Assembly: GCA_934101795.1 (NCBI GenBank)
Contig: CAKORY010000003.1
Location: 41,873-105,872, forward strand
Length of the DNA stretch: 64,000 nt
Reading direction: 5' to 3'
Source: an uncultured Bacilli bacterium
GTDB taxonomy: Bacteria; Bacillota_I; Bacilli_A; RF39; UBA660
Of the stretch, positions 6,277 to 53,895 are shown piece after piece. The translations under genes were made by a program, and so were the position numbers. Below the pieces are notes generated by a model. It was not told the origin of the DNA. It did no database searches and was given only the letters and a program-made list of their open reading frames with translations. Within the stretch, counting starts at the first letter, position 1, and every line of letters starts with the position of its first letter.

Positions 6277-6293
6277 TTTTATTCCTCCTTATA

Positions 6294-6998: not shown

Positions 6999-7009
6999 TT
7001 AGTCACCCC

Positions 7010-36283: not shown

Positions 36284-39200
36284 TTATTTAATGAATTTAT
36301 CTATATCTTCTAATATATAAGCATTTATATTAACTTTCATGGCTTTATCACTTATCAAAGGCTCATTAACAATAAAGCAATAATCAATTCTCCATTTTTT
36401 CTTTTCTAAGCCATAATGTTGAATAATATCCGCAATATGAGCTTTGCACCACTCTACTCTTTTCATATGCTTATTATAAAAGCTTTTTTTATTATTAGGA
36501 TCAAACAAATCATGGTATTCATTATACATTTCATACATATTTCTTGATAATTCAAAATTTTTAACTTCACACACGATAATTCTTTTAAACTTTTTAGAGA
36601 TAAAAAGTACATCAATATCTCCTAATGTATTCTTATCTGAATTATTTATTTTTATACCATTAATTTTACTAACTTTTTTATATACAATGGAATTTGGAAA
36701 TGTACACAAATAATTATATACTTTTTCGTTAAAGTCTTCTCCACTTTGTTTATTTATAATACCAAGGTAAGTTTTCATCTTTTTGCTTCTTGCCTTAAGT
36801 GTAGCATTATTAATTATTTCGAACAAAAAGTATATCGCATTTAAAAATGACCTATAACCATAAATAATTTCATCTTTATAAATAATAAGTGGTTTTCTAT
36901 TTAATGAAAGTTCCCTATTGTTTCTCCATGGAAATACATCTACATTTCGATATGGTGTTGGCGGATTTAAATAATCTTCTCTTTCAACTTGAGATAAGTA
37001 TAAAATAATTTTATTTAAAACATCATCACTAACTTGATTATTTGTCTGATCTTTTAGTTCTTTTATAGTCGTTGAATACAATGTGTTAAAATCACCATTT
37101 TTATCCTCGGCTATTTCCAACAATGATACAGTTACTTCAGTAAAATCTTTAAATGTAAATCCAAATTCATCTTCAAAAGCTTCTTCAAATCCAGGAATAT
37201 CTTTTTTCTCAGTTTCATATTGCGATATCATTTTTTGTTTATCTTTTGCTCTGGCTCCCATCCTACCCATCTTTGCATTTTTCAAAAAATGGTTTACTCT
37301 TATCAAGAAATCTTTATTGTATCCTAATCGATTAGAATTTAATAAGGTTAATGTATTATCAGCCATTTTATAGTTGTAAATATCACATATATATGCATAA
37401 TCAATTATTTTGGAAGCTTCTGTTAAAATATATTCAATTTCATATAGTGAAATATCATCGCTTCCATCTATTTTTATTGATGCAGCTAATTCTATAATAA
37501 ATTTTAATGCGACTGAAGTTCGATTCAAATCATTTATCTTTTCATCTATCTCTTTTTTTCTATCAGGATAGCATACTACATCGCTAGCATAATTTGCTTG
37601 TCTTATTAATAATGATGATAAATTTTTTTCAAACTCTAGATATAAAAAATCTATTAACTTACGCTTATTATACTTTTTAATTTTCTTCAGAATATTATTG
37701 TATAGATGTCCAACGATATCATTTAAAATTTTATAATCTTTTATTTTACCATAATGTATTTTTTTGTCATCTTTTAAATATAGTCCTACATCATCTATTA
37801 TCAAATTTGAAATAGCATTACTAACGCATAAAACACACTCATCTTCAAAAGGAAGCATATACCCATCCCCATTAGAATTCATAATAATTAGTTTCTTTTT
37901 ATACTTATTACTAAAAATCTGATTAATCAACTCACTTGGATACTCAATTTGATAGATTTCACAGATTCTCTTTACTATATTAGATATAAAATCTTTTTCT
38001 TTATCATTTTCAGCGGACTCGAAATACCTTAAAGAGTTTTTTTCAAAAGTAATGTCTAACTGTCTACTATTAATATTGAATAATATTTTACCAACTTCGC
38101 TATCTTTATCATAATGTGTAATATATATTGATGGATCACAATGAATATTAATTTTAAACACTCCATTCAAATCTTTAAATAATGTTGAAAATTGATTTAA
38201 CCAATATGAAATCATATCTATAATTAGATTTGTTATATGGTAAGAATTATTATCAATATTTTCTTCGCTTAAAACCCATATATTAAATTTATTAAATTCA
38301 AGCAAATTGTTTAATTGATGCTTGTAAAATAATCCAGGAGCAAAACAAACTCCATCTTCTTTTTTCATCACTTCTAATAAAGATGTTCTACTAAAAAGAG
38401 CTAAGTGATAACCATTTTTTATATAAGATTTTAAAATATAATCACTACTATATTCACCAATAAAAAACAATAATGCTTCTTTTGAATCACATTCATCACC
38501 TAGATAGAATGATTTATCTCTTTCAGAAAAAAGAGCAACAAAATTTAGTTCAGTAAACAAATTCTTTTTATAATGTTTTAATCTATTTCTAGCAACAATA
38601 TACTTGTATAAAAACATATTTTCTTCAGACTCATTAATACATATTGACGTTAATTCATATGGAGAAAGCATTAGTAAATTTTTATTAGAATTCAAATATA
38701 CCGCACATATCGTATTTCTACCAATAGTTGTTGGGGTAATGATTGATACAATTTTATCTTCTTTAAAACCATGTTTTAATAATTGCTTTTTGACATTTTT
38801 TATTCGATTACTAATATAATTATTATTTATTGAATATTTATATTCTTTGTTAGTTTCATAATCTTTTCCATCATCAAATAACACAATATTGTAAAAAACT
38901 ATATCATTGCCACACAAATATATAGATTCATCAACTATATTATTACTTTCAAGTTCCAATTCAAATTGTTTACTATCTAATAATTGAAAACCCATACGTG
39001 CAAAATCTCTATGCAAGTCATTCAAAAGTAAAAGATTATAATCTTTGAGAACATCAATTTTATAAGACATAAAAAACTTTATTATCATATCCATTAATAA
39101 CATAATAATAATAGTGCAATCTACCAAAACAAATTTCTCACCATATCTAACAAATGGTCTACAATAAAACTTTTGATTATCGAAATCATCTATTTCATCA

Positions 39201-39883
39201 ATACTTATTTCTCCAAATTCAATAACAAGTTGTTCATATTGTTCTCCAAATAATTCAACCATATCTTCTTTACTAAAAGCCACTGTTTCTTTACTTGATT
39301 TAAGAACGTTGGCTGAAGGTATTTTAATATCAATATCTTTATTAAAAGATTTTAAATCATTAAGTTTAATATTTAATGAATTATAAACAAACTCGGATAC
39401 ATTTAGTAAACCCTTAACAATAATATTAAACTTTCTATAATCCTCATTTGGAAAGTCATCTTTATGGACAACTAATACTTTTAACATATGATCTAAATAA
39501 TGTGGAGCTAACGTGCTAGCTCCCATAAACAAATGATAATTTCCATAATAAATGACAGGTAATGCAAAAGGAAATTCAGGAGGATCTATCATATTTTTTC
39601 TATTAAGATTAGAAAATTCCTTTATAAAGTACTCAAGCTTATTACGACTCATGATATTTTTGCTCTTAAAATCATCGTACTTTAATGATAGAGCCGTACT
39701 TATAATTGCTTGAAAAACAACCGATTTACTTTGATTTTCGGGAATTAAAATTAATCCAGATATTTGTGATAGGAAATCAATCATATTATAATTTTTTAAT
39801 TCTTCCCTTAAACGTTTTATTACTTCAGCATCTCCTTTATTTAATTTTTCCATATTATTATTAAAAACTAATTCTGGAACCAT
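36284..39883 (-). CDS. large orphan protein (1199 aa) with C-terminal PD-(D/E)xK nuclease motif; candidate single-gene defence protein
   Basis: AGGAGG RBS. GDIDVLFISKKFKRIIVCEVKNF (D...E-x-K) is encoded at 36560..36619. No Walker A or helicase motif was seen in the preceding ~1090 aa. Confidence 0.6.
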   Translation of the reverse strand: MVPELVFNNNMEKLNKGDAEVIKRLREELKNYNMIDFLSQISGLILIPENQSKSVVFQAIISTALSLKYDDFKSKNIMSRNKLEYFIKEFSNLNRKNMIDPPEFPFALPVIYYGNYHLFMGASTLAPHYLDHMLKVLVVHKDDFPNEDYRKFNIIVKGLLNVSEFVYNSLNIKLNDLKSFNKDIDIKIPSANVLKSSKETVAFSKEDMVELFGEQYEQLVIEFGEISIDEIDDFDNQKFYCRPFVRYGEKFVLVDCTIIIMLLMDMIIKFFMSYKIDVLKDYNLLLLNDLHRDFARMGFQLLDSKQFELELESNNIVDESIYLCGNDIVFYNIVLFDDGKDYETNKEYKYSINNNYISNRIKNVKKQLLKHGFKEDKIVSIITPTTIGRNTICAVYLNSNKNLLMLSPYELTSICINESEENMFLYKYIVARNRLKHYKKNLFTELNFVALFSERDKSFYLGDECDSKEALLFFIGEYSSDYILKSYIKNGYHLALFSRTSLLEVMKKEDGVCFAPGLFYKHQLNNLLEFNKFNIWVLSEENIDNNSYHITNLIIDMISYWLNQFSTLFKDLNGVFKINIHCDPSIYITHYDKDSEVGKILFNINSRQLDITFEKNSLRYFESAENDKEKDFISNIVKRICEIYQIEYPSELINQIFSNKYKKKLIIMNSNGDGYMLPFEDECVLCVSNAISNLIIDDVGLYLKDDKKIHYGKIKDYKILNDIVGHLYNNILKKIKKYNKRKLIDFLYLEFEKNLSSLLIRQANYASDVVCYPDRKKEIDEKINDLNRTSVALKFIIELAASIKIDGSDDISLYEIEYILTEASKIIDYAYICDIYNYKMADNTLTLLNSNRLGYNKDFLIRVNHFLKNAKMGRMGARAKDKQKMISQYETEKKDIPGFEEAFEDEFGFTFKDFTEVTVSLLEIAEDKNGDFNTLYSTTIKELKDQTNNQVSDDVLNKIILYLSQVEREDYLNPPTPYRNVDVFPWRNNRELSLNRKPLIIYKDEIIYGYRSFLNAIYFLFEIINNATLKARSKKMKTYLGIINKQSGEDFNEKVYNYLCTFPNSIVYKKVSKINGIKINNSDKNTLGDIDVLFISKKFKRIIVCEVKNFELSRNMYEMYNEYHDLFDPNNKKSFYNKHMKRVEWCKAHIADIIQHYGLEKKKWRIDYCFIVNEPLISDKAMKVNINAYILEDIDKFIK

Positions 39884-39966: not shown

Positions 39967-42900
39967 TTAAAATTTGTTGTTAGATAAACTAAAGAATTTA
40001 TCAAAGAACTCTAATAATTTATCAATAACTTTATTTTTCTTTTCTTGTCTATCATTATTTGGTGTGAACATACTCATTGGAGGAAGTATTGTTGATACTT
40101 CTGTTCCAGTAGTTTCTACTCTCCCCTGTTCAAATGATCTTTGTATAAAGTTATAAGTTTCTTCCTTATTAAGATTTTCTTCAACAATTATTTTATCTAA
40201 TTCTTCTTTCTTTTTACTATTCATAAACGATTCAAAATCAACATATACATTTGAATCTTGGCCTAAAGAGTCAATAAATGCCATAATTAAATCTTTTTTA
40301 TTTCTTAAATCTGGGCTTGCCATTATAGCCTTTTGAATATTTACAAGTATTTCTTTATCTTCCATATTTGAGTCATGGTACTTTTTAACTAATGCCAAAA
40401 TATAATCAATATTAACTTCAATTGACTTAATTAATTCCATTTCAAATATAACATCTTCTGTAACATCCGTTTTTTCTCTTTTTGCTTTATTTCTGAATTC
40501 ATTATAAAGTTCTATGTAGATGCTGTGATAATCCTGTTTATCCCTTTCATTGATTAGTTCTTCATTTTTGAATTCATCGAATGATGATAAGATGTTAGTA
40601 ACTTTTAATATCGCACCATATAGTTTTATAAATTCTTTTTGTTCTGTTTCACTTTGCATTAATTCCCCTGGTGCAAATTTTGAAGTTAACTTTTCAACTA
40701 AAGATTTATACCCTTCAAAGGTTTTACCATTTTCATCTTTATATCCATAGTAGTAATCTTTATATGGTTTTAAAAGTACAATCCCACGTGCATTCTCATC
40801 ACCAAATTTAGCAAGTGCTTCATTAAGTCTATCTTCTAAGTTTCTAAATGAAATTATATTACCATATGTTTTAACACTATTTAAGATTCTATTTGTTCTT
40901 GAAAAAGCTTGAATTAATCCATGCCATTTTAAATTTTTATCAACCCATAATGTATTTAATGTTTTAGCATCAAATCCTGTTAAAAACATATTAGCTACAA
41001 TTAATATATCTATTTCTCTATTTTTCATTCTTAAGGATACATCTTTATAATAGTTTTGAAATTTTTCTGATGTTGTATCATAGCTTGTTCCGAACATGTT
41101 GTTATAATCTTTAATTGCATTTTCAAGAAAAGTTCTATCATCAGTACTTAGTGCTTCAGTTGATTCTGAATTTTCATCAATTACTCCATCTTCTCCATTA
41201 ACTCCATAAGAATATATTAAAGCAACTTTAAGATTACTATTTTTAGAATCTAGTTGTTTTTTAAATTCTGAGTAATATTCCTTAGCCATTTTAATATTTG
41301 ATACTGCAAATATAGAATTAAAACCGTTGATATTTTTTTTGGATTTAATTTCTTCTGTATTTTGTCTTTTAGCTACATCTATAATATTATCTAAAGTTGA
41401 ATAAACATAACTTTCAGATGTCTTTGTCTTCGTAGAGAAATGTTCTATTACGTAAGTTGTAATTAAACATATACGCATTTGATTATCATATAATTTTTCC
41501 TCATCTATGTTATATATCTTTTCATCTTTTACGTCATTTGATATATTTGTTCCACCAACATACTCATATCTAAATGGTAATACGTTTTTGTCTGCTATTG
41601 CATTTACGATTGTATAAGTATGTAATCTTTCTCCAAAGATTTGTTCAGTTGTTTCCGAAATACCTTTTATTGTTCTAGCATTTTCTGGGAATATTGGGGT
41701 TCCTGTAAATCCAAACAAATAATATTTTTTAAAATTTTTAATAATTGCTTTGTGCATATCTCCGAATTGAGATCTGTGACATTCATCAAATATAAATACT
41801 ACATGTTTATCAAATACATTACTATTTTCATTTTTCTTAATAAATTGTGATAATTTTTGTATTGTAGTTATTATTATTTTTGCATTAGGGTCATTTAATT
41901 GTTCTTCTAATACTTTGGTTGATGTATTAGAGTTAGCAGCTCCTTCTTTAAATCTATCATATTCTTTCATTGTTTGATAGTCTAAATCTTTTCTATCCAC
42001 AACAAATAATACTTTATCAATAAAATCTAATTTACTAGCAAGTTGTGATGTTTTAAAAGATGTTAATGTTTTTCCAGAACCGGTTGTATGCCAAATATAT
42101 CCACCTGATTTAATAGTTCCATAGAATTTATTATTGTAGGCTATGGTAATTCTATTTAAAATTTTTTCAGTAGCAACTATTTGATAAGGCCGCATTACTA
42201 ATAATTCTTCTTCAGAAGTAAATACACAATACTTAGTTAAAATATTTAATATTGTATGCTTAGTAAAGAATGTTTTAGCAAAATCGATTAAATCTGTTAT
42301 CCCATTATTTTTTTGATCTGCCCAATATGAAGTAAATTCAAATGAATTAGACTTCTTTTTCTTTTGATTATTGATATGAAATTCCCTTGTAGTATTTGAA
42401 TAATACTTGGTTAATGTTCCATTTGAAATAACAAATATTTGAACGAAATTATATAATCCAGAACCTGCCCAGAATGAATCTCTTTGATATCTTTCTATTT
42501 GATTGAAAGCTTCTCTTAAATCTACTCCTCTTTTCTTTAATTCAATATGAACCAAAGGTAAACCATTAACTAAAATAGTTACATCATATCTATTATCTTG
42601 ATTCCCATCATTATTAACGTATTGATTTAATACTTGAAGATTATTGTTATGAATATTATTCTTATCTATTAAATAAATATTCTTCTTTTCACCTGAATCA
42701 AGAGTTATCTCTTGCTTATAATCTTCTTGAATTAATCTTGTTTTTTCAATGATATAATCATTTTTATTAGCAATTATTTTAGTAAAGAAGTCATCCCATT
42801 CTCCATCGGTAAATCTATAATTATTTAATTTTTCTAATTGCATTCTTAGATTAAGAATCAATTGATCTTCTGAATGTATATTTAATCTTTCATATCCTTG

Positions 42901-43035
42901 TTCAACTAAATTTTTAATTAATTCTTTTTCAAGAGCATCTTCGCTTTGAAAAGATTTTGATTCTCTATTTAATCCCTTATATTCAGCTAATACTGTTGAG
43001 TTATCATTTTCACTTATTAAACTTATACTATTCAT
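39967..43035 (-). CDS. hsdR: type I restriction endonuclease subunit R
   Basis: N-terminal nuclease DVTILVNGLPLVHIELKKRG. Helicase motifs HTTGSGKTLTSF, FDECHRSQ, GFTGTPIF. GGAGG RBS. Confidence 0.9.
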   Translation of the reverse strand: MNSISLISENDNSTVLAEYKGLNRESKSFQSEDALEKELIKNLVEQGYERLNIHSEDQLILNLRMQLEKLNNYRFTDGEWDDFFTKIIANKNDYIIEKTRLIQEDYKQEITLDSGEKKNIYLIDKNNIHNNNLQVLNQYVNNDGNQDNRYDVTILVNGLPLVHIELKKRGVDLREAFNQIERYQRDSFWAGSGLYNFVQIFVISNGTLTKYYSNTTREFHINNQKKKKSNSFEFTSYWADQKNNGITDLIDFAKTFFTKHTILNILTKYCVFTSEEELLVMRPYQIVATEKILNRITIAYNNKFYGTIKSGGYIWHTTGSGKTLTSFKTSQLASKLDFIDKVLFVVDRKDLDYQTMKEYDRFKEGAANSNTSTKVLEEQLNDPNAKIIITTIQKLSQFIKKNENSNVFDKHVVFIFDECHRSQFGDMHKAIIKNFKKYYLFGFTGTPIFPENARTIKGISETTEQIFGERLHTYTIVNAIADKNVLPFRYEYVGGTNISNDVKDEKIYNIDEEKLYDNQMRICLITTYVIEHFSTKTKTSESYVYSTLDNIIDVAKRQNTEEIKSKKNINGFNSIFAVSNIKMAKEYYSEFKKQLDSKNSNLKVALIYSYGVNGEDGVIDENSESTEALSTDDRTFLENAIKDYNNMFGTSYDTTSEKFQNYYKDVSLRMKNREIDILIVANMFLTGFDAKTLNTLWVDKNLKWHGLIQAFSRTNRILNSVKTYGNIISFRNLEDRLNEALAKFGDENARGIVLLKPYKDYYYGYKDENGKTFEGYKSLVEKLTSKFAPGELMQSETEQKEFIKLYGAILKVTNILSSFDEFKNEELINERDKQDYHSIYIELYNEFRNKAKREKTDVTEDVIFEMELIKSIEVNIDYILALVKKYHDSNMEDKEILVNIQKAIMASPDLRNKKDLIMAFIDSLGQDSNVYVDFESFMNSKKKEELDKIIVEENLNKEETYNFIQRSFEQGRVETTGTEVSTILPPMSMFTPNNDRQEKKNKVIDKLLEFFDKFFSLSNNKF

Positions 43036-44119
43036 CTTTTACCTCCACTTTATAGTAATTAATAAAATCATTAAAGGACTTTATAAATATATCTTTTTCA
43101 TGTTCTGTTAAATCTGTATATTCAAATTCGGGCAAACTGCCATGACTATACAAATTAATTAGTTTTATAATTTCTTTTTTATAATCATTATCAGGTATAC
43201 ACTCATCATACTTTTTATATCCAAAATAATTAGAAGTTTTTTCTATTATAATTCTAAACATATTAAAATGAATTTTCTCAAGTGTTTCTTCATTAATAGC
43301 AGTATTTATTTTTTTTATTAAAGTTAAATGATATCCAAACGGTGAGTCGCCTTTCTCCTCAAGGGTATAGATATAATTTTTTTTATTTAAAATATATGAT
43401 TTTAATGTAATTTGTCCTTCTCTGTTTAAAAGATTATATATTGAATTGTAAAATAGTGCATGATGTGTTGTTATTAAAATATTTATTTTAATTTTATTTT
43501 CTTCCATTCTTTGTATCAGTTCAAAAATTTTTATTGCCACATTTAGCATTTTTATATCATCAATAGAAGATACTGGATCATCAATAACTAAATATTCAAC
43601 ATTATCAAATATGTTAGTTGACCTATCTTCTTGATTTTCATTAAGTTCATAAATCATCAAGTCAACAAATGTATAAAATATTGACCAAATAAAAGTACTT
43701 TCTTCGGCTTTCGATATTTTTATACCATGGTCATAACCTTCTATTGTTTTAGCACTAAACTCAATAAATCCTAGTTCTAAATTTATAGACGCTAGTGTTG
43801 AATCATCACAAAATATTTGAAAATTTTTTTCAATTTCATTTTCTAATCCCTGATCCCTTATAATTTTTGCTATCTCTGAATTAATGTCAAATGTTAGTAT
43901 TGAATTGGAATTATTCCATGAAAATTCATCCTGAAACATTGAATTAAAGCATAGTACTTTATCTTCCAATAAATCTTTAAACATTCTTGATATTCTTGTT
44001 TTTCCAGTACCATTAAAAGCATATACTAAATCAACTTTTATTTTTTTTGATGGTCCATCAAGGTTAAGTTTCAATTTCTCAAATACATCTTCTAAATTAT
44101 TTAATGTTGTTTTATTCAT
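43028..44119 (-). CDS. prrC: PrrC-like anticodon nuclease (ABC-type NTPase N-domain plus R-x3-E...H nuclease domain)
   Basis: Walker A AFNGTGKTR, Walker B-like YLVIDDPVSS. C-terminal FRIIIE (R at 43253-55, E at 43241-43) and LYSHG (H at 43142-44), with H 33 residues after E. Sits between hsdS and hsdR as in the E. coli prr locus. 8-nt overlaps on both sides. Confidence 0.7.
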   Translation of the reverse strand: MNKTTLNNLEDVFEKLKLNLDGPSKKIKVDLVYAFNGTGKTRISRMFKDLLEDKVLCFNSMFQDEFSWNNSNSILTFDINSEIAKIIRDQGLENEIEKNFQIFCDDSTLASINLELGFIEFSAKTIEGYDHGIKISKAEESTFIWSIFYTFVDLMIYELNENQEDRSTNIFDNVEYLVIDDPVSSIDDIKMLNVAIKIFELIQRMEENKIKINILITTHHALFYNSIYNLLNREGQITLKSYILNKKNYIYTLEEKGDSPFGYHLTLIKKINTAINEETLEKIHFNMFRIIIEKTSNYFGYKKYDECIPDNDYKKEIIKLINLYSHGSLPEFEYTDLTEHEKDIFIKSFNDFINYYKVEVKDE

Positions 44120-45305
44120 TTTTAAGTTCCTCAAAGTTTAACAATTTATTTCTATAATACTCATATTGTTTTTTTCTTAATTCTATTTCTGCTGGAATTC
44201 CTTCAGATATGTCGTTAACCAATTTATCGAATATATCTAATATACTGGCTATATGAATTTGTTTTTCAATGGAAGGAACAATAAATTCATAATTCATTAT
44301 TACTTGTTTATCTCCCCGTGGCATCTTAGCCCCTTTCGAATTTGAATTATTATATTCAAAGAATGATTCCGATGATAAAACATAGTATAAGAATCGTGGA
44401 TATATTTTTTTAGTATCATTTACTCTTATATCTAAAACATCTCCATTAGTTCCACCACAACAATCAGCAAACCAGATTTTTCTTAAATATGGTCTAATAT
44501 TTCCAATCAAAATATCATTCTTTTCAAATTTAGTTGAATTGCCTGATGTGGGTACATGATAAGACTTTGTTTTTCCTTTTTTATTTTGAAGTAAGTTGTC
44601 CACACCAACATAATTATCTTCACTAAGTTTATCATAACTAATTCTATCATTAGAATAAGAGCATATTTCTTTAAGTTTAACTAATTCAGTTCCATCATTC
44701 AATAATTTTCCACGCCAAAACTCATATTGATTCTTTCTCGCTTCTAGCTCCGCTTCTAGCTCCGCTTCTAGCTCGCTAAATTTATCAAGAATTCTTACTA
44801 TTTCTTCTTGAACTTCTATTGGCGGGGTAGGAATTATAGTATTCTTTATTGCATCCGAACTTAAATTTGGTTGAGCTCCTCCACCTGCTAACCGATAAAA
44901 ATAATTAACTTTATTTAATAAATAATGATATAAAAAACGATTATTCATCCTGTCATCTTTAGGGGTTATCTTTCCAATACGTTGATTTAAATATAATAGT
45001 TTACCAGTGCAATTAATTCCAATTTTACCCGTTGTTGCACCAGACATAGCAATAACTATTTCATCACTACCAACTTTGAAGGGAGATAAATCACTATTAT
45101 AATCAAAAACATCTATATATTTTATATCAGACAAATCTATCTTCTTACCATCAATATTTGTGATTCTGAGTAAAATATCACCTTTAGATTTAAATAGACT
45201 ACTCTTAAATGCATAACCATTTTGAAAATAACAAATTTCACCAATAGTTTTGTACTCAACCCCTTTAGGACACATTTCTTTTATTAAATCATTAATCTTA
45301 CTCAT
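44112..45305 (-). CDS. hsdS: type I R-M specificity subunit S
   Basis: Two target-recognition halves separated by the conserved helix EEIVRILDKFSELEAELEAELEARKNQYEFWRGKLL. C-terminal RKKQYEYYRNKLL. Confidence 0.85.
   Translation of the reverse strand: MSKINDLIKEMCPKGVEYKTIGEICYFQNGYAFKSSLFKSKGDILLRITNIDGKKIDLSDIKYIDVFDYNSDLSPFKVGSDEIVIAMSGATTGKIGINCTGKLLYLNQRIGKITPKDDRMNNRFLYHYLLNKVNYFYRLAGGGAQPNLSSDAIKNTIIPTPPIEVQEEIVRILDKFSELEAELEAELEARKNQYEFWRGKLLNDGTELVKLKEICSYSNDRISYDKLSEDNYVGVDNLLQNKKGKTKSYHVPTSGNSTKFEKNDILIGNIRPYLRKIWFADCCGGTNGDVLDIRVNDTKKIYPRFLYYVLSSESFFEYNNSNSKGAKMPRGDKQVIMNYEFIVPSIEKQIHIASILDIFDKLVNDISEGIPAEIELRKKQYEYYRNKLLNFEELKNE
44739..44774. repeat. perfect 12-bp x3 tandem repeat (CGCTTCTAGCTC) encoding (ELEA)3 in the central spacer helix of HsdS
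   Basis: Read directly: three identical units at 44739-50, 44751-62 and 44763-74. Confidence 0.95.
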
Positions 45306-46866
45306 GGTAATCAACCTCAAGTTCTTTGATTATTTTTTCTAGTTCCTCTCTTATTTTTTGTTGTCTAGGTACAATTTCTGCAAGTTTTCTGTTTACTTCT
45401 TCTATATCAATTGTATTATCCTCAATATTGCTTTTTAAATAAGAATTGACTGATATATTATAATCATTATCTTTAATTTCTTCATAAGTAGCTAAATAAG
45501 ATTTATTGTCAACAGTTTTTCTTTCTTTCAACAAATTAATTATATTATTAATATTTTCATCTGATAATTTATTTTTATTAGTATTTCTAACACATTCATT
45601 AGATGCATCTACAAATAAAATGTTATTATCGGATTTGTTTTTCTTTAACACTAAAATACAGGTTGTTATTGGTGTTCCAAAGAATAAATCTGAAGGTAAT
45701 TGGATGATTGTGTCTACGAAGTTATTATCAATCATATATTTTCTAATCTTTTGTTCCGCTCCACCCCTATAAAGAACACCTGGGAACTCAACTATAGCAG
45801 CCGTACCTATAGGTGAAAGCCATGATAACATATGCATGGTAAATGCTAAATCTGCTTTAGATTCTGGAGCCAACACCCCTGCTGGAGCAAACCTTTCATC
45901 ATTTATTAAAATTGGATTTGATTTACCAGCCCATTTTATTGAATATGGTGGGTTTGATACTATGGCATCAAATGGTTCATCATTCCAATGTGATGGATGA
46001 ATTAATGTATCTCCTCTTTCAATACTAAATTTATTGTAATTAATATTGTGTAAGAACATATTTATTCTAGCTAAATTGTAAGTTGTAAGATTAATTTCTT
46101 GACCGAAAAATCCCTCTCTTACATTTTCTTTTCCAAGAATTTTGGCAAATTTTAAAAGTAATCCACCTGAACCACATGCTGGATCGTACACTTTATTAAC
46201 TGATTTTTTATCCATTATTACTATCTTTGCAAGTAATTCTCCAACTTCTTGCGGAGTAAAAAATTCTCCTCCAGATTTACCTGCATTTGAAGCATACATT
46301 GTCATTAAATACTCATACGCATCTCCAAATAAGTCTATCTTATTTTCTTCATAATTTCCAAAATTTAAATCTCCAATTGCGTTTAATAATTTAACAAGTT
46401 TTTTGTTTCTTTCATCAACCGTATTACCTAATTTATTATCAATTGTAAAATCATCAAATAGCCCTTTAACATCATCTTCTGATGCTGTTCCTCTTGCTGA
46501 TGATTCTATATTATTAAATACATTTGAAATTACAACATTTAGGTTTTCATTTTTATCTGCACCTTTTCTTATATTGCAAAATAATTCACTTGGTAAAATG
46601 AAGAATCCTTTTTCTTCAAGTATTTGACTTTTACCCAATAAGGCTTCTTCATCAGAAATATCTCTATATTTAAAATTTGACATACCTGCTTTTCTTTGAT
46701 TTTCGTTAACATAGTTTTCTATATTTTCTGATATAAATCTATAAAATAGTAAACCTAATACATATTGTTTAAAATCCCATCCGTCTACCGAGCCTCTTAG
46801 TTCATTTGCTATTTTCCAAATTGTTTTATGTAATTCTTCTCTTTCTATTTCTTTTTTATTATTCAT
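45298..46866 (-). CDS. hsdM: type I R-M N6-adenine DNA methyltransferase subunit M
   Basis: Start moved to MNNKKEIE (AAAGGTGG RBS). HsdM N-domain LHKTIWKIANELRG. SAM motif YDPACGSGGLL. Catalytic SNPPY. Confidence 0.9.
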   Translation of the reverse strand: MNNKKEIEREELHKTIWKIANELRGSVDGWDFKQYVLGLLFYRFISENIENYVNENQRKAGMSNFKYRDISDEEALLGKSQILEEKGFFILPSELFCNIRKGADKNENLNVVISNVFNNIESSARGTASEDDVKGLFDDFTIDNKLGNTVDERNKKLVKLLNAIGDLNFGNYEENKIDLFGDAYEYLMTMYASNAGKSGGEFFTPQEVGELLAKIVIMDKKSVNKVYDPACGSGGLLLKFAKILGKENVREGFFGQEINLTTYNLARINMFLHNINYNKFSIERGDTLIHPSHWNDEPFDAIVSNPPYSIKWAGKSNPILINDERFAPAGVLAPESKADLAFTMHMLSWLSPIGTAAIVEFPGVLYRGGAEQKIRKYMIDNNFVDTIIQLPSDLFFGTPITTCILVLKKNKSDNNILFVDASNECVRNTNKNKLSDENINNIINLLKERKTVDNKSYLATYEEIKDNDYNISVNSYLKSNIEDNTIDIEEVNRKLAEIVPRQQKIREELEKIIKELEVDYHE

Positions 46867-47145
46867 ATTACTTACCACCTTTTCTTTTATGTATACAATA
46901 TAGAAGCAAGGCACTCTTAACTGTATCATCAACGTTATTCATATTTAATTCAAATATGCTGTCTATTATCTTTTTTACCATCATTATAATCTTTTAAGTT
47001 TTTATTGGTAAATGTGATTTTGTCTATTTCTAATTTATGTCATTTAACAGTTTATTCATGATAATACCCTCCTAAATTATCTGTTATATAGACCATTATA
47101 ACATACAATTTGATAAATTAGCATAAAAAAGGTTAAATTACATTA

Positions 47146-47168
47146 TTAATTAATTAATTAATTAATTA
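47146..47168. repeat. (TTAA)n tetranucleotide microsatellite, about 5.75 units
   Basis: Read directly, in the intergenic region between the HEPN gene stop and the hsdM upstream region. Confidence 0.85.
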
Positions 47169-47339
47169 TATTCTATATTAAACAACACTAAATTTATATA
47201 TTATTCCACTTTAGGGCACATAGATGTCAAAAATACAAAATTATATATTTTACTATTATGTTTTTTAACACTTTATAATTATTTCATGACTTACCCCTTC
47301 ACTTAAATATTAATATATCACAGCATGCAACATTATAAA

Positions 47340-48737
47340 CTAAATATCGCGATTATCATATATTGATAAATATTCATCTTTGTTTAAAACGTCTTCAACA
47401 TATTTTTCATCATCAGTCACAAGAAATAATAAATTACTTATAAATATTTTTTCTAGTCTTCTAACATATCCGGGCAAATATTCTTCTTTTAAAATGTAGT
47501 CTTTTGTGTTAAGATGCGTATAATAATTTCGCGTATTAGCCAAATAATCATATACATTACTTTTACTATCTTCTTTTTTACATTGCTTATATTCAAATCT
47601 TTTAGGCATTATATTATTTTTGTCAATTTTCTTTATTCTACTTGCTAATTTTACTCTTCTATCATATTGATAGACCATAGCATTGACTACACTTTCATGT
47701 ATATTATCTATATTCTGTATATATTCTTTGTTAAAGCCATTATCTTTCACAGCTTTTTCTAAGCTTATTTTATTTTCATCATAAAATTTTTGCAAAATAT
47801 TTTTAAAGGCTTTATTCTTTTTTTCCTTTTCTTCAATATTCTCTGTTGCATAGCTAAATTTTTCTATACATTTCATTATTGTTAAAAAATCATCTTCTAT
47901 GGTATGAGATTTATATGGACTATAATAGACGTTTATTGCCTCTTTAAACCTTTTATTGAAATATATGTCGTGCCACTTACTAAAAATTTTTATTATACTA
48001 TCACTAATACAATTATAATAAGTTCTTAAATTAAAAGTAGGATAACCTAAATGATTGCTATACCAATTACTAAAATCTGTATTTATTACAACTTCGTCTT
48101 CAATATCACCCATAAAATTTTTACCTTTATACATTTTGTGAAATTTAATTAATCTTACTTGACTGCTATATCCCATAAACAAAGCAAAAAATCTTGTAAT
48201 CATTTGTATATACATCATAATTTTTTCTATGCTCATTATATAACCTGACCTTACACAAATATATGGTGTTATATTAAAATTTTTAATAGATGTATCAGTT
48301 AAATTACAATTTTCTTCAAAATATTTTACATAAATTTTCAATTTATCATTATTGTATAATAAAATGTCATTAGGTATATTAAATTTAATTTCATTTTTTT
48401 CTTTTATAATTGTTTTAATATTTAACCATTCATCTAATCGATTAAAAGTAAATCTAAAACTTTGTATATGCTTACTAAAATCTACGTTTTTATATTTTAT
48501 ACAAATTCCTTTTTTGACAACATAACCAACTTTATACTTGTAATATCCTATTCCATTACCAATTAAAAGACAATTATATAAACTTATATATTCATTTCCT
48601 GCAAATCCTGTTATTTTTTTCTTATATCCATTAATGCTACTTTCATTTATTGTCAAATATATGTTATTATTATCATCTATTTCGCATTCCCCAGGATGAT
48701 TTTTTTTATCAAAATAAAACGTACCTTTATAAATCAT
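47340..48737 (-). CDS. ApeA-like HEPN-domain protein (465 aa)
   Basis: C-terminal YLANTRNYYTHLN, an R-x4-H HEPN signature (R at 47529-31, H at 47514-16). 17 nt downstream of the KAP NTPase gene. Confidence 0.6.
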   Translation of the reverse strand: MIYKGTFYFDKKNHPGECEIDDNNNIYLTINESSINGYKKKITGFAGNEYISLYNCLLIGNGIGYYKYKVGYVVKKGICIKYKNVDFSKHIQSFRFTFNRLDEWLNIKTIIKEKNEIKFNIPNDILLYNNDKLKIYVKYFEENCNLTDTSIKNFNITPYICVRSGYIMSIEKIMMYIQMITRFFALFMGYSSQVRLIKFHKMYKGKNFMGDIEDEVVINTDFSNWYSNHLGYPTFNLRTYYNCISDSIIKIFSKWHDIYFNKRFKEAINVYYSPYKSHTIEDDFLTIMKCIEKFSYATENIEEKEKKNKAFKNILQKFYDENKISLEKAVKDNGFNKEYIQNIDNIHESVVNAMVYQYDRRVKLASRIKKIDKNNIMPKRFEYKQCKKEDSKSNVYDYLANTRNYYTHLNTKDYILKEEYLPGYVRRLEKIFISNLLFLVTDDEKYVEDVLNKDEYLSIYDNRDI

Positions 48738-48754
48738 ATTTACATCCTTTCACA

Positions 48755-50068
48755 TTAATTAGTATCACTAAAATTAATTGAATTCCCTAGCATAGAAATG
48801 GCTTCAAGATACGGAAAATTATCATAACTTGTTTTCTTTGTAAAAATTTTTTTATATTCTTTAATAAATTTATCAACTAAATTTTCAGTTTCATTTCTTG
48901 GCAAAATTTCAGATAGCCATCTAATATAATCTCGCTCATCATTATCACTTTCTAGAAATGCGAAAAAAGATTTTATTATTTCATCTCCATTACCAGTAAT
49001 AAAACTATTGTAGTTATTTATATTTTTAATTTTTAATGCTAAAGCCATTGGCAATAAAACATCAGCTTCAAATAAATATTTATTTCTGTTAAAAGAATCT
49101 TTAAAATCAGTATATGGTTCAACAATCTTGTACATTGACATATACTTGTTACATTCCCTATATGAAAATTTTAAATATTTAAATAATTCAAAAGATATGT
49201 TTTCTGGTAAATTAGTAGATTGTATAATCTTACAGTGCTTTTTAACATAATTTTCTAAATTATCAATTCCAAGTGTAATAACACTATCATAGATTTTATT
49301 TAAATAACCATATCCATCAAAATCACTGCCATAATATTTTTTTATTGTATAACTCAATTGCCTATTATTAGTTACAACTATAATACTTAATTTTGGGGTG
49401 TTGTAGAAATGTTTTAATGTTTCAAGTAATTTTACTGCATAATCAGGTCGACATCTATCCAATTCATCAACTACTAATAATATTCTTTCATCTGATTTGA
49501 TTATTTTGTTAAATAATTTATTCAATGATGATTGTTTTTCTTCAATTGTAACAATACTATCTGCTAAATCCTCAAATGATTTTAACTTTTCAAAGCAATC
49601 TTTAGTTATATATCCCAAACCGCTTTTTTCAATAATGTTTTCTAATATTGGTTTTATTGTACCAAACAATTCTTCAGGATTTTCAAAACGTTTTTTATAT
49701 TTAGGGTATTCATTTAAAACATTATAAATTAGTGACTCTAGTGGGTTGTCATGATTATCATTCTCCCAAGCATTATAATAAACTACAATATGTTTTTGTG
49801 AAAATTCTTGTATTTTAGCATAATCCTTATGTGTCTTTATACAATCAATTGTACTGTGGCTATTACATATATAAATTAATTGTTTTATGAAAAAAGTTTT
49901 TCCTGTTCCCCATTCGCCATCTATGGATAATATAAAATTCTCATTAACATTATTTAATAATTTCATAAGATTAATTATTTTACTATTTCTTTCTAACAAA
50001 TCGTCATTAATAGTACTAAGTAAATTTTCGTCATTAATTAAAAGTTCATATTTTTTCAAATTTATCAC
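48755..50068 (-). CDS. KAP-family P-loop NTPase
   Basis: Walker A IDGEWGTGKTFF, YNAWENDNHDNPLESL, Walker B LLVVDELDRCRPDYAVKLLETLKHF. The start is ambiguous: GTG at 50068, or TTG at 50059 after GAGGTG. Confidence 0.8.
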   Translation of the reverse strand: MINLKKYELLINDENLLSTINDDLLERNSKIINLMKLLNNVNENFILSIDGEWGTGKTFFIKQLIYICNSHSTIDCIKTHKDYAKIQEFSQKHIVVYYNAWENDNHDNPLESLIYNVLNEYPKYKKRFENPEELFGTIKPILENIIEKSGLGYITKDCFEKLKSFEDLADSIVTIEEKQSSLNKLFNKIIKSDERILLVVDELDRCRPDYAVKLLETLKHFYNTPKLSIIVVTNNRQLSYTIKKYYGSDFDGYGYLNKIYDSVITLGIDNLENYVKKHCKIIQSTNLPENISFELFKYLKFSYRECNKYMSMYKIVEPYTDFKDSFNRNKYLFEADVLLPMALALKIKNINNYNSFITGNGDEIIKSFFAFLESDNDERDYIRWLSEILPRNETENLVDKFIKEYKKIFTKKTSYDNFPYLEAISMLGNSINFSDTN

Positions 50069-50080
50069 CTCTGTTTTTTA

Positions 50081-50809
50081 TTATTTCTTCACAAACCTAC
50101 ACTTTGGAAAATTTGAGCACCCCATAAATTCTCCGTATTTTCCATTTCTCTTTATAAGCTTTCCACCACACCTTGGGCATCTATCTTTAAACTCTTCTTC
50201 TTTATTATTTTTGATTAATTTAGCATTCTTTACATGATTTTTTCTTTCGTTTTTATCTTTTATATTTAGATTATTTATAATTTCATATAATTCAATTAAG
50301 TTTTCAACAATTACTTCTTGATAAGAAAGTATTTTCTCTAATAAATCATATATTCTAGTTACATTATTTGATTTAACTGACACTTTTGCTCTACTTGGAA
50401 TACATACTAGTGATATAAACTTCTCTTCTGGCATATTTAATACTTCATGTAGGGATTTGACATGACCATAATTTTGATGAAATGGATTATTTATATAAAA
50501 ATTTTTGTTTCCACTTTTTATTAACCATCTTTTATCATATTCGTTTCCCTTTATGTAACCGTTATATTGTTTTGTTTCAATTACAAACACACCATATTTC
50601 GAAACAACAACATGATCTATTTGATGTGTACTTTCATCATTTGTTTTAATCATTACATCATTAATTACTAAATACTCACTTGGCAATCTTTTCAATTCTC
50701 TTTTAACCCAAAATTCTCCAGCTTTACCTATCCACTTTTTATAATTAACACTTAACAAAATATCTACTGCTACAATTATCCATAACCATGGATTAAATAA
50801 CCACTCCAT
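50081..50809 (-). CDS. NERD-domain protein with N-terminal TM helix and C-terminal topoisomerase-type C4 zinc ribbon
   Basis: [68 protein letters not shown]. Confidence 0.8.
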
Positions 50810-50837
50810 TACATAACCTCTTTCCTAATTGTTTTTT

Positions 50838-50866
50838 ATTATATATTAGTTACGATAAAAAAGCAA
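50838..50866 (-). promoter_or_regulatory. sigma-A-type promoter for the NERD-KAP-HEPN operon
   Basis: Minus strand: TTGCTT-N17-TATAAT, about 30 nt upstream of the NERD start. Confidence 0.5.
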
Positions 50867-50890
50867 TATAATGTTCTAATTTATAATTAC

Positions 50891-50917
50891 AAAAAAAGAA
50901 ACCTTTTTAAGATTTCT
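50891..50917 (-). terminator. intrinsic terminator after the Cys-rich mini-gene
   Basis: Minus strand: AGAAATC-TTAAAAA-GGTTTCT (one G-U pair) followed by TTTTTTGT. Confidence 0.45.
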
Positions 50918-50932
50918 TCAATTTATCTATAA

Positions 50933-51082
50933 CTAGCAACTGCAGTTTTCACAATCACATTCTTGGCAATTGCAATCATCTTCACAGTTACATTCTTCAC
51001 TATTGCATCCACATTCACAAGTTTCATCGTAATTACATTCTTCACATTCACAACCGCAACTGCATTTTTCTTTTTCTTCCAT
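50933..51082 (-). CDS. 49-aa acidic, cysteine-rich peptide (16 Cys), not in the ORF track
   Basis: Own translation: MEEKEKCSCGCECEECNYDETCECGCNSEECNCEDDCNCQECDCENCSC, stop TAG. AGAGGTG RBS 6 nt before the ATG. Same strand as the dual-HEPN gene and 57 nt downstream of it. Terminator follows. Confidence 0.55.
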   Translation of the reverse strand: MEEKEKCSCGCECEECNYDETCECGCNSEECNCEDDCNCQECDCENCSC

Positions 51083-51139
51083 TTTTTCACCTCTTTTTCT
51101 CTATTTATTATACTACGATTTTGGTTTTATTTAAATACT

Positions 51140-52807
51140 TTATGATTTTTTGTTTCTTACTAATTTTTGTTCATTTTTATTTAGGAATGCTATTATTATA
51201 TTTTGATTTTCATATATCATGTTTATAAAATCTATTATATCTATTTCACATTTAAATGTAAGCTTTCCTTCATAAATATCTTCAAAAACTATTTTAATTT
51301 CATTATTTATAGATGTTTCTAGTTTATAATTTCCATGTGATATACTATTTCTAATACCATTTATTATTACTTTGTTTTTTAAGTGTTCACTATTTTCTTG
51401 TTCATAAGTAACAATTTCATTTAATCTTATATTTAACAAAGCAGCTTGTGCCTCTAAAATTTGTTTTTGAGTTTCAGTTTTTGTTAAAATTGCAGATATT
51501 CTTTTTATGGCAATTGAATTTCCTTTTTGCTTAACGTTTTCTAAATTTTGATTATCTTTAGCAATTTTACTAGATATTTCTACTATTTGTTTATTTTTAC
51601 TAGCAATTTGAATTAAAACTTCATTTTTGATAGTTTCATCTGGTTCAAAATATAAAACATTTATGCTACTTAAATCTAGATTGCCATAATCTAAACCCGT
51701 ATTTTCATCTTTACTATATTCATTATTATTTTTAAAAATTGTATCATTTCCATATGAAAATAAACTTTGAAATAAAGCAATTTCAACCCCTACAAGCTCA
51801 TTATAACTAATTATATCTACACTTTGTCTTCTTTTTAATGCTTCTACCGTGTTTTTCTTGTCTTTTATTTCAATCTTTTGCAAATCAGAAATTAATAACA
51901 GATTTTTTAATAATGAGTATAGTAAATTAAAATCCGGTTTTCTTTTAATTTCTATTATTTTAGAAAGTAAATTTACTTCATCTTTATATTCCATGTCATC
52001 TGTTAAATTCATAAATGTTTCATCTACTGCTTGCTTAAGTATATGATATGGTATTCTTTCTTCTTTAACATCAACTAAATATTTTTCCTTAATTTGTCTT
52101 TCAAAGTCCATTATTATTTGATTAGATTGTAAGTCTTTACAAGCAGCTAACACTAATTCAAATTTATCTTTTAAAAGCTCATTTATCATAGAATTATCTC
52201 GACTTTTAAGGGTAATAGTTTTTATCTTAAATGTTTTAGCAAATCTTAATAGTTCATCTTTATTTTTAAAAGGTTTTGTTCTTTTTCTTTCTTCTTTATT
52301 TGAAATTAACAATTCTCTTTTGTAAATATGTTTTTCAGGATTTTTTAAGCTTGCTTTTAAACATGAAATTATCATTTTAGATAAATCACTTATGTTAACT
52401 GCGACTTCATCACCATCAATATTAAAAATAACTTTATTTTCTTCTGCATCTAATTTAAAACTACCATGTGCTATTTTGTTTCTTAATTCACCTACTACAG
52501 ATGCAGCATCTTTAAACTTATGATTATCTACATAAAATCCATCACTTTTTTTAATAGCTATCATATTTACAGAACGTAGTAATTCATTATAAAAAATCTT
52601 TGTTTCATAGTTTTCTTTTGTTCCTTCAACAACATCTTCCTTAATAGCTAATAAAACACAACTTACTAAACTAAAACTTGCTATATTTAAGTATTTACTA
52701 TCCATTATATATTCAAAATCTTCTATTTTTTCATCTAATATATTTGTTAAAATGATTGCATATTCTTTTATTCCACTATAAAGTGTTTTTAATGTTTCAG
52801 TATCCAT
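51140..52807 (-). CDS. dual-HEPN protein (two RNxIxHG motifs), about 555 aa
   Basis: Start moved to MDTETL (GGGGGA RBS). ELRNKIAHGSFKL (R at 52481-83, H at 52466-68) and GIRNSISHGNYKL (R at 51350-52, H at 51335-37). Each motif is followed by a similar beta-like segment (VIFNIDG / KIVFEDI). Coiled-coil-like stretch between them. Confidence 0.6.
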   Translation of the reverse strand: MDTETLKTLYSGIKEYAIILTNILDEKIEDFEYIMDSKYLNIASFSLVSCVLLAIKEDVVEGTKENYETKIFYNELLRSVNMIAIKKSDGFYVDNHKFKDAASVVGELRNKIAHGSFKLDAEENKVIFNIDGDEVAVNISDLSKMIISCLKASLKNPEKHIYKRELLISNKEERKRTKPFKNKDELLRFAKTFKIKTITLKSRDNSMINELLKDKFELVLAACKDLQSNQIIMDFERQIKEKYLVDVKEERIPYHILKQAVDETFMNLTDDMEYKDEVNLLSKIIEIKRKPDFNLLYSLLKNLLLISDLQKIEIKDKKNTVEALKRRQSVDIISYNELVGVEIALFQSLFSYGNDTIFKNNNEYSKDENTGLDYGNLDLSSINVLYFEPDETIKNEVLIQIASKNKQIVEISSKIAKDNQNLENVKQKGNSIAIKRISAILTKTETQKQILEAQAALLNIRLNEIVTYEQENSEHLKNKVIINGIRNSISHGNYKLETSINNEIKIVFEDIYEGKLTFKCEIDIIDFINMIYENQNIIIAFLNKNEQKLVRNKKS

Positions 52808-53007
52808 AATTTCCCCCACTTATGGGCTATATTTTACCACAATAGCGATTTTAAGTCAAATTCTATGCCAAAAGAAAAAAAGATATTATTTTTTCTTACT
52901 AGTACTTTTTTTAGCAACTTTTTTAAGAAGTTAAGATAAGCAAGTGTAATAAAAATTAATAATATTTAAAGTAAATATAATCTTTATTTGTAAATTATAT
53001 GTAAACT

Positions 53008-53895
53008 TTACCTTTTTCTTGGTTTTATAATATCATTACTATTTATATGGCCTATTAGCAATGATGAATTTATATCATGATTATTAATATTTATCTTAAC
53101 TTTACTTTCATCGTAATTTGCATAACAATATTTACATAAATGATTGCACGAATTATACATACCAATATCCACTAATTCTACACAATTACATGCACTACCT
53201 TTACGTGCTTGCCATTTTTTATATGTCTTACCTGTTAGTTTAAAAGCTAGTTCTTTTGACATGCATTCACCTTTTATAAATCCATATTCTGTTAAGTTTC
53301 TTTCTTCAAAACATGTTTGTACAACCATATTATTATTTTTTGCAATCTTGCTAAAGCTTTCACCAATTAGTTTGTAATCTTCTTCGGTGAGTGAACGATA
53401 CTTTAAGTATGGTAAATTTTTTCTTACATTTTGATAATTATCTATAAATGATACAATTATAGTCTTAACATAGCCTTTTAAAAGACTACATAACTTTTTA
53501 AATGCTTTAATATGATATTCTACGTTGTATTTTTTACTTATAAAAATTGGATCATATCTTACATAGACATTCTCGATACCAATTGTTGTTGATATCTTTT
53601 TGACTGCTTCGATTATATCACTTTTAGATGGTAAATTTGGTTCTATATCATCTTTATAAGGAGTTATTGTTACATGAAAAATATATGGTATTTTTATATC
53701 ATCAAGTTTATCTATGATAGGTATTGGATTTTTGGTACAAAATAATATTAAATCTACATCTTCAAAATTGATTCTACTTACTAAATTTGGATTAAATGGG
53801 TTTCTAACATCTACATATCCTTCTTTAAGTCTATTTAAAAACCATTTTGAATAAAATGCTACAATATCTGTTCTACCACTTACATTTAATATCAT
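53008..53895 (-). CDS. DUF1848-family protein
   Basis: MILNVSGRTDIVAFYSKWFLNRLKEGYVDVRNPFNP... and C-terminal CNHLCKYCYAN, typical of DUF1848 as I recall the family. Confidence 0.6.
   Translation of the reverse strand: MILNVSGRTDIVAFYSKWFLNRLKEGYVDVRNPFNPNLVSRINFEDVDLILFCTKNPIPIIDKLDDIKIPYIFHVTITPYKDDIEPNLPSKSDIIEAVKKISTTIGIENVYVRYDPIFISKKYNVEYHIKAFKKLCSLLKGYVKTIIVSFIDNYQNVRKNLPYLKYRSLTEEDYKLIGESFSKIAKNNNMVVQTCFEERNLTEYGFIKGECMSKELAFKLTGKTYKKWQARKGSACNCVELVDIGMYNSCNHLCKYCYANYDESKVKININNHDINSSLLIGHINSNDIIKPRKR

Follow-up and report, generated by a model that had tools for sequence, protein, structure and literature searches.

The window analysed here is a stretch of 64,000 nucleotides (nt) of contig CAKORY010000003.1 from an uncultured Bacilli bacterium (NCBI GenBank assembly GCA_934101795.1), in which three open reading frames (ORFs) of 242, 437, and 465 amino acids (aa) lie on the minus strand between positions 47340 and 50866, in the order NERD, KAP, and ApeA-like. 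An earlier, sequence-only reading had taken these genes for a candidate composite defence system, with a membrane-anchored NERD protein as DNA sensor, a KAP-family NTPase as switch, and an ApeA-like HEPN RNase as effector. Comparison with related loci points instead to a conserved NERD gene at the edge of a defence-gene hotspot and, directly behind it, a mobile cassette of the KAP and ApeA-like genes. The features of the locus, in the direction of transcription, are as follows.

50891–50917, minus strand: terminator-like hairpin AGAAATC-loop-GGTTTCT with T-run, between a 49-aa Cys-rich ORF and NERD.
50838–50866, minus strand: TTGCTT-N17-TATAAT promoter-like element of NERD (from the sequence; hexamers conserved across loci).
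50081–50809, minus strand: NERD (PD-(D/E)xK-type) and C4 zinc-ribbon gene with an N-terminal hydrophobic helix, 242 aa (Pfam).
50060–50080, minus strand: junction of conserved flank and cassette, 21 nt, holding the KAP ribosome-binding site alone (blastn breakpoints and junction sequences).
48755–50059, minus strand: gene for a soluble KAP-family P-loop NTPase, cassette gene 1, 434 aa from TTG (Pfam, PADLOC PDC-S20).
48738–48754, minus strand: KAP–ApeA spacer TGTGAAAGGATGTAAAT, 17 nt, with an AAAGGA ribosome-binding site.
47340–48737, minus strand: gene for an ApeA-like HEPN RNase, cassette gene 2, 465 aa (Pfam, PADLOC PDC-S58, invariant residues, AlphaFold2 model).

The KAP ORF called mechanically starts at a GTG at 50068 (48755–50068, 437 aa), which falls within the gene's own ribosome-binding site, GAGGTG (50071–50066). 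The start used in homologues is the TTG at 50059, giving 434 aa, and the gap between NERD and KAP is therefore 21 nt rather than the 12 nt first given, whereas the 17 nt given for the second gap stand. At that length the KAP–ApeA spacer, which measures 2–20 nt in other copies of the pair, is on sequence grounds too short to hold a separate ApeA promoter.

The domains assigned earlier to all three proteins were recovered in Pfam above the curated gathering cut-offs. The NERD protein matches PF08378 (99.2 bits, cut-off 22.1) and Zn_ribbon_Top1, PF01396 (54 bits, cut-off 32); D65, E78, and K80 of its D...ExK motif and C211, C214, C231, and C237 are invariant in homologues, and residues 3–21 have a mean Kyte–Doolittle hydropathy of 1.78, compatible with the one transmembrane (TM) helix that had been proposed as an anchor beside the C4 zinc ribbon. 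The KAP protein matches PF07693 KAP_NTPase at 114.2 bits (cut-off 20), and its classification is borne out by G51, G54, G56, and K57 of the Walker A motif GEWGTGKT and by D201, E202, D204, R205, and C206 of the Walker B motif VVDELDRC, all invariant in 16 KAP homologues. In the 465-aa protein, PF18862 ApeA_NTD1 covers residues 3–255 (54.1 bits, cut-off 25.5) and PF18739 HEPN_Apea residues 285–437 (30.6 bits, cut-off 24.4). Its TRNYYTH sequence, correctly read as the R-x4-H HEPN signature in an ApeA-like context, occupies residues 402–408, of which T402, R403, T407, and H408 do not vary among 19 homologues with identities as low as 38%. Invariant positions in the N-terminal part include T29, E32, G44, G64, and Y66.

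All three genes could be found together only in copies of the same island (loci L017–L019 and L103 of those compared), which have 91–93% DNA identity to the window over 5.9 kb including the type I restriction-modification (R-M) genes and in which the ApeA relative is 96% identical. A survey of gene neighbourhoods gave no co-occurrence beyond these copies. With NERD found beside unrelated cargo elsewhere and the KAP–ApeA pair found without NERD, the claim of a composite three-gene defence system fell, and the role of NERD as a membrane DNA sensor finds no comparative support. The triad matched no named multigene system in PADLOC or NCBIfam.

NERD homologues fall into at least 2856 clusters, and the 120 of these that were listed differ little in length and, almost without exception, combine NERD with the zinc ribbon. 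In orthologues of 94% (L111–L113), 80% (L114), and 76% (L115–L117) identity, upstream synteny is kept, including an ORF of 49–52 aa directly before NERD. The downstream cargo consists of an ADP-ribosylglycohydrolase fragment, a D12 methylase, HNH_2, and GmrSD in the 94% loci, an AAA_15/21 ATPase, Abi_alpha, and AbiEii in the 80% locus, and MazG-like and SLFN-type helicase genes in the 76% loci. When the window was compared by blastn with NERD loci holding other cargo, DNA homology ended at 50083–50087, the NERD stop codon. Judged by this synteny, NERD is a conserved chromosomal gene whose 3′ end bounds, on the left, a variable hotspot of defence genes in a low-GC group of gut Bacilli.

A consensus scan of positions 46800–51200 returned 43 promoter-like sites against 43.5 expected from shuffled sequence, and 0 terminators. 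Such a scan is uninformative in AT-rich DNA, and the promoter claims therefore rest on conservation across loci. The TTGCTT-N17-TATAAT element is present where it had been placed, and both hexamers are kept 5′ of NERD in L017, L111, L114, and L115, irrespective of downstream cargo. The terminator hairpin before NERD is likewise conserved in L114 and L115, with changes on both arms (GAGTTCC...GGAACT). Because hexamers and hairpin persist with entirely different cargo, the element is assigned to NERD as its own predicted promoter.

The small ORF before NERD lies in the window at 50933–51082 (minus strand); it encodes 49 aa with 17 cysteines, MEEKEKCSCGCECEECNYDETCECGCNSEECNCEDDCNCQECDCENCSC, and is followed by the hairpin and T-run. 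ORFs of 49–52 aa were called at the equivalent position directly 5′ of NERD in L017 and L111–L117, and the product may be a conserved mini-protein that binds metal and partners NERD.

The KAP–ApeA pair, by contrast with the triad, could be found without NERD in loci L004–L007, L020–L024, and L104–L107, in at least three contexts besides the window; the ApeA relatives concerned are 89% (L020, L021, and L024), 83% (L004–L007), and 75% (L022, L023, L104, L106, and L107) identical. By blastn, homology of the window to the NERD-less loci L020/L024, L004, and L022/L023 is confined to the segment from 50071 to 47304–47336, that is, from the KAP ribosome-binding site to just beyond the ApeA stop, and the NERD-block and cassette-block homologies meet within about 11 nt. 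The synonymous divergence (dS) of the two genes is matched in every comparison (0.23/0.20, 0.44/0.42, and 0.71/0.83), and the ratio of nonsynonymous to synonymous divergence (omega) is 0.11–0.25 overall for both genes and 0.34–0.45 between the closest copies. As dS tracks between KAP and ApeA up to ~0.8, the two genes have evidently been passed on together over a long period, through several relocations. Compared across these loci, KAP and ApeA show up as a discrete mobile cassette of ~2.75 kb, conserved and co-inherited. The closest loci come from metagenome-assembled genomes of uncultured gut Bacilli/'Tenericutes' from human, Hadza, rabbit, and ruminant samples, which agrees with a GC content of roughly 22–30% in the window.

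Copies of the cassette outside the window carry, just 5′ of a GAGG ribosome-binding site, a hairpin of 13–14 bp with a T-run and an extended -10 element, TGnTATAAT, which reads TGGTATAAT or TGATATAAT (hairpin and -10 at 6610–6668 in L020, 6605–6663 in L004, and 6602–6660 in L022). Folding energies of the hairpin are -10.4 to -14.5 kcal/mol (z -2.5 to -3.4). Changes on the two arms of its stem go together when L020 is compared with L022, and the structure could serve as an insulating terminator or an operator. Pairing is restricted to one clade, with ApeA at ≥75% and KAP at ≥82% identity, and seems to go back to a single operon fusion. A similar -10 element, in some cases with a hairpin too (L039, L043, and L044), stands before KAP in several relatives without ApeA; since promoter signals precede KAP both in the cassette and in these relatives, the pair would have arisen by placement of ApeA under the KAP promoter. 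The ApeA-like gene would thus have come to lie 2–20 nt behind KAP once, thereby using its promoter.

In the window, the hairpin and TGnTATAAT promoter of the cassette are absent, and between the NERD stop and the KAP start there are only the 21 nt noted above; transcription of KAP and ApeA therefore probably relies on read-through from the promoter of NERD. The cassette would have landed directly behind NERD, at the left edge of the hotspot. The three genes thus probably share one transcript in the window lineage, and that part of the operon claim survives; what does not is its reading as a design, for the operon, though plausibly real at the transcript level, would be an accident of insertion and not a conserved arrangement. 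A metagenomic locus, L102 (4549–6398), holds an intact ApeA of 97% identity together with a KAP gene truncated at its 5′ end to 144 aa, a natural 'KAP knockout', and here the cassette abuts two housekeeping genes, an EPSP-synthase-family gene and MreB.

The best PADLOC match of the KAP protein is the single-gene candidate PDC-S20 (E 2.8e-48). The protein has no TM segment (maximum 19-residue hydropathy 1.18), a polar insert of low predicted local distance difference test score (pLDDT) between Walker A and B (residues 133–172), and about 170 C-terminal aa that are helical and without a known domain. The best fold match of its model (pLDDT 75) is RdrA of RADAR (8hr8, E 3e-5, query TM-score (TMq) 0.44, 13–16% identity), followed by ORC/Cdc6; a KAP profile found nothing significant among PDB sequences. 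KAP homologues number at least 2715, and the context of 79 genome loci was examined. ApeA stands beside KAP only in the 82% and 90% relatives among these, relatives outside the paired clade (≤63% identity) having no ApeA partner, and 23 of the 55 non-Collinsella loci have no same-strand neighbour within 100 nt. Genes of ~460 aa 3′ of the KAP relatives in L058, L066, and L067 were considered as cryptic ApeA genes and rejected, because Pfam places them in AAA_15/AAA_21/OLD-type families and DUF4143. KAP NTPases protect as single-gene anti-phage proteins (PMC13552941; 'Reve', PMC13586616), and by homology to these the window protein would be an ATP-hydrolysis-dependent anti-phage protein of the single-gene PDC-S20 or EF_KAP kind.

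Other neighbours of KAP relatives can also be seen. A distant subfamily (28% identity) in Collinsella and relatives (L074–L091 and L099) consistently has a 688-aa ORF 9 nt downstream, which in L074 is of GmrSD type (DUF262/DUF1524; KAP at ~5980–7362 and GmrSD at ~7372–9438). Because it recurs in about 20 genomes, this arrangement would be a better candidate for a true pairing of KAP with an effector than the window triad. In L030, a TM-anchored Mrr_cat gene (5191–5976) lies directly 5′ of a KAP relative with a gap of 18 nt, and in L033 an ORF matching it in size and spacing takes the same place; in L059 a YhcG/DUF1016 nuclease gene (4989–5999) lies 1 nt upstream of KAP. These arrangements superficially echo that of NERD and KAP in the window.

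In PADLOC, the ApeA-like protein matches only PDC-S58 (E 2.4e-10), a single-gene candidate; at E ≤ 0.1 none of the matching models bears the name ApeA, and NCBIfam gave no match. Its AlphaFold2 model (pLDDT 85.7) consists of a beta-rich N-terminal and a helical C-terminal domain; searches against the PDB gave no sequence match and no fold match at E ≤ 1e-3, the cryo-EM structures of ApeA presumably lying outside the set searched, and tblastn against phage and plasmid collections gave no match. Its homologues form 29 clusters, and a metagenome scan with an ApeA profile found 9 loci only, too few for statistics. By domains and motif the protein is a predicted member of the ApeA family, from a very divergent clade. 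Relatives at ≤58% identity (L001, L003, L008, L012, L016, and L108) have neither KAP nor an adjacent NERD, and most have a separate intergenic or promoter-like region upstream (e.g. L012 and L016); in L003, a 161-aa unannotated ORF stops 28 nt upstream. The gene does not stand alone in the window or in any relative at ≥75% identity, lying 2–20 nt behind KAP without a separate promoter region.

ApeA is reportedly a single-gene HEPN defence (Gao et al. 2020 are said to have presented it as such). More recent work, on Ec1ApeA and Ec2ApeA, describes a single-protein, doughnut-shaped, ligand-activated HEPN nuclease that cuts tRNA anticodons (bioRxiv 10.64898/2026.01.26.701840), and ApeA also cleaves the genomes of RNA phages (10.64898/2026.03.20.713152). 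By homology to the published proteins, the window protein would be an oligomeric, ligand-gated HEPN RNase that upon infection cuts phage RNA or the anticodon loops of tRNAs.

ApeA-like genes, paired or solitary, often lie within a few kb of an AAA_25 gene and a large serine recombinase or integrase (L004 12297–15325; L020 11216–14358; L008 11125–13243; L012 16242–17398). These neighbours suggest that ApeA-like genes are carried on small integrative elements.

A predicted defence role of both cassette genes is well supported, and the question is how far the genes of the locus work together. That NERD as membrane DNA sensor, KAP as switch, and ApeA as effector cooperate, at least in the window lineage, is very improbable. 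The probable co-transcription, with all genes on the same strand at gaps of 21 and 17 nt and no cassette promoter, would fit such cooperation, as would the PD-(D/E)xK-type genes directly 5′ of KAP relatives in L030 and L059, the NERD-family genes that L001 and L046 carry no more than a few kb from KAP or ApeA, and a UvrD-type helicase with a zinc ribbon in L040 that weakly matches the window NERD protein. However, the triad is seen solely in copies of one island, NERD orthologues keep promoter and synteny with unrelated, autonomous cargo, the cassette occurs without NERD in at least three contexts, and NERD-family clusters (at least 2856) far outnumber those of the ApeA clade (29). The genes near ApeA in L001 and KAP in L046 were rejected as a NERD link, since they encode a different architecture, NERD-HRDC, and are non-adjacent, being separated by unrelated genes including a tRNA synthetase. 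It is equally hard to credit that one or both cassette genes are decaying passengers without current function: the window-lineage cassette has lost its promoter and L102 demonstrates that KAP can be truncated, but both ORFs are intact with invariant catalytic motifs, and omega stays at the values given above even between the closest copies.

We lean towards the view that KAP and ApeA are two separate defences with additive effects, moved and expressed jointly, and consider an obligate sensor–effector pair less likely. Several points weigh against this preference. The linkage has stayed at 2–20 nt under one promoter through dS ~0.8 and several relocations; the best fold match of KAP, RdrA, is an ATPase with a separately encoded oligomeric effector; and KAP relatives are often tightly linked to Mrr_cat, YhcG, HTH-Fic, GmrSD, and deaminase genes, toxin and nuclease neighbours that would fit a logic of KAP with a variable effector. 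In addition, the NERD promoter is probably the only one upstream of KAP–ApeA in the window lineage, and joint expression there by read-through is deduced from spacing only. An obligate two-component system, in which KAP senses infection or, as an ATP-driven switch, gates the oligomeric ApeA RNase in the manner of RADAR, with its RdrA ring ATPase and RdrB effector oligomer, would also agree with the matched dS and purifying selection on both genes, with the view of KAP domains as regulators of linked anti-phage modules (PMC13552941), and with the fact that the activators of some ApeA homologues are unknown (10.64898/2026.01.26.701840). We nevertheless consider it unlikely, because the pairing has a single origin, the nearest unpaired relatives are full-length and mostly have separate promoter-like regions, and pairing left the domain make-up of both proteins unchanged. 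The 32 substitutions specific to the paired ApeA clade leave the catalytic motif untouched; comparison of paired with solitary ApeA as a possible coupling signature gave, at these 32 positions, no pattern bearing on coupling. L102 retains ApeA with a truncated KAP. Of 256 ApeA-like representatives, the 150 that were listed (all ≤543 aa) include no KAP–ApeA fusion, and none was seen among KAP homologues. The RdrA match is weak (TMq 0.44, 13–16% identity) and is to a protein of about double the length, and no RdrA model matched in PADLOC; published work, moreover, treats ApeA and KAP as single-protein defences (10.64898/2026.01.26.701840; PMC13552941; PMC13586616). A more specific version, with a soluble RdrA-like KAP ATPase as the dedicated upstream sensor or ATP-driven switch that gates a doughnut-shaped ApeA-like anticodon nuclease, is slightly more doubtful; if true, it would give the first ApeA under partner-protein control, a defined effector for KAP NTPases, and a new two-gene defence system.

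Set beside known systems, the cassette resembles RADAR in having two genes, the ATPase first and the oligomeric effector second, and in the structural match of KAP to RdrA. RdrA, however, has about 800–900 aa against the 434 aa of KAP, the cassette effector is a HEPN RNase and not an adenosine deaminase, and RdrA and RdrB always occur together, whereas KAP and ApeA are mostly apart. Pfam finds no deaminase in the operon and PADLOC no RdrA or RdrB match, and RADAR is taken as a functional analogy only. PrrC, a HEPN anticodon nuclease within a multigene locus and regulated by partner proteins, sets a precedent for partner-gated HEPN RNases, but PrrC, embedded in hsdMSR, itself contains an ABC-type ATPase domain, whereas ApeA has no NTPase domain and lies beside a KAP NTPase. 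With single-gene KAP defences (PDC-S20, EF_KAP and KAPs from gut metagenomes (PMC13552941), 'Reve', and PifA), the window protein shares the KAP_NTPase domain, intact Walker A and B motifs, the helical C-terminal region of about 170 aa, and residence in a defence island; it differs in being soluble, without the TM helices in or before the NTPase domain that many KAPs have and that are described for EF_KAP, and from the single-gene KAP defences as a whole in its predicted co-transcription with a complete ApeA-like gene. The second gene has the ApeA_NTD1 and HEPN_Apea architecture, similar length, and invariant R-x4-H of ApeA, and its relatives at ≤58% identity, without KAP, mostly look free-standing; unlike ApeA, the gene of the window clade has lost its promoter and stands second in an operon led by a KAP NTPase gene, and the clade is very divergent, comes from low-GC gut Bacilli, and among PADLOC models matches PDC-S58 only. 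As in other defence hotspots beside core genes, NERD is a conserved flank with a sharp homology break at its stop codon and interchangeable cargo of recognisable autonomous defence systems behind it; here, however, the flanking gene is itself of a nuclease family, and its promoter has apparently been co-opted in one lineage to drive the first cargo cassette. No published description of a KAP–ApeA pair was found in the literature. What is new is that two known single-gene defences have been fused into a mobile operon and captured behind a hotspot-flanking NERD; the parts were already known.

The hotspot extends in the window from about 50080 down to about 36000 and holds, in order, KAP–ApeA, a type I R-M locus (39967–46932) with a PrrC-like gene inside it, and a 1199-aa ORF, before housekeeping genes begin. 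The members of the type I R-M locus are as follows.

45298–46932, minus strand: hsdM.
44112–45320, minus strand: hsdS.
43028–44134, minus strand: PrrC-like anticodon nuclease within the locus (PADLOC PrrC, E 5.7e-87).
39967–43035, minus strand: hsdR.

The PrrC-like gene, 3–7 kb downstream in the same island, is a second candidate for a HEPN-type anticodon nuclease. No Pfam family matches the 1199-aa ORF (36284–39883, minus strand) at E ≤ 1e-4. It is flanked by hsdR and the housekeeping genes DUF362 and CinA and may represent additional defence cargo, at the island's right end. On the other side of NERD, the gene at 51140–52819 (minus strand) encodes 559 aa in which R-N-x3-H occurs twice, as ELRNKIAHG towards the N-terminus and as GIRNSISHG towards the C-terminus, and the two motifs suggest a double-HEPN protein; its homologues carry a weak pEK499_p136 HEPN flag, and the window protein has a faint PADLOC match to RTasHEPN (E 0.025). 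The gene at 53008–53895 (minus strand), also conserved 5′ of the 559-aa gene in L111–L113, encodes a DUF1848 protein that contains a radical-SAM-like Cys cluster and faintly resembles the viperin family (NCBIfam E 0.002, far below cut-off).

The locus illustrates that closely spaced genes of a defence island can look like an 'operon' through the chance insertion of cargo next to a conserved gene, and that a story built on three domains needs neighbourhood conservation before it is read as a single system. The KAP–ApeA cassette offers a clean natural case of two autonomous single-gene defences placed under one promoter and relocated as a unit, and thus a small system for asking whether co-travelling defences are additive, synergistic, or related as sensor and effector; it also opens the question of what a soluble KAP NTPase does. 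For the uncultured gut Bacilli of this group, the 3′ end of NERD provides a landmark for mining defence cargo.

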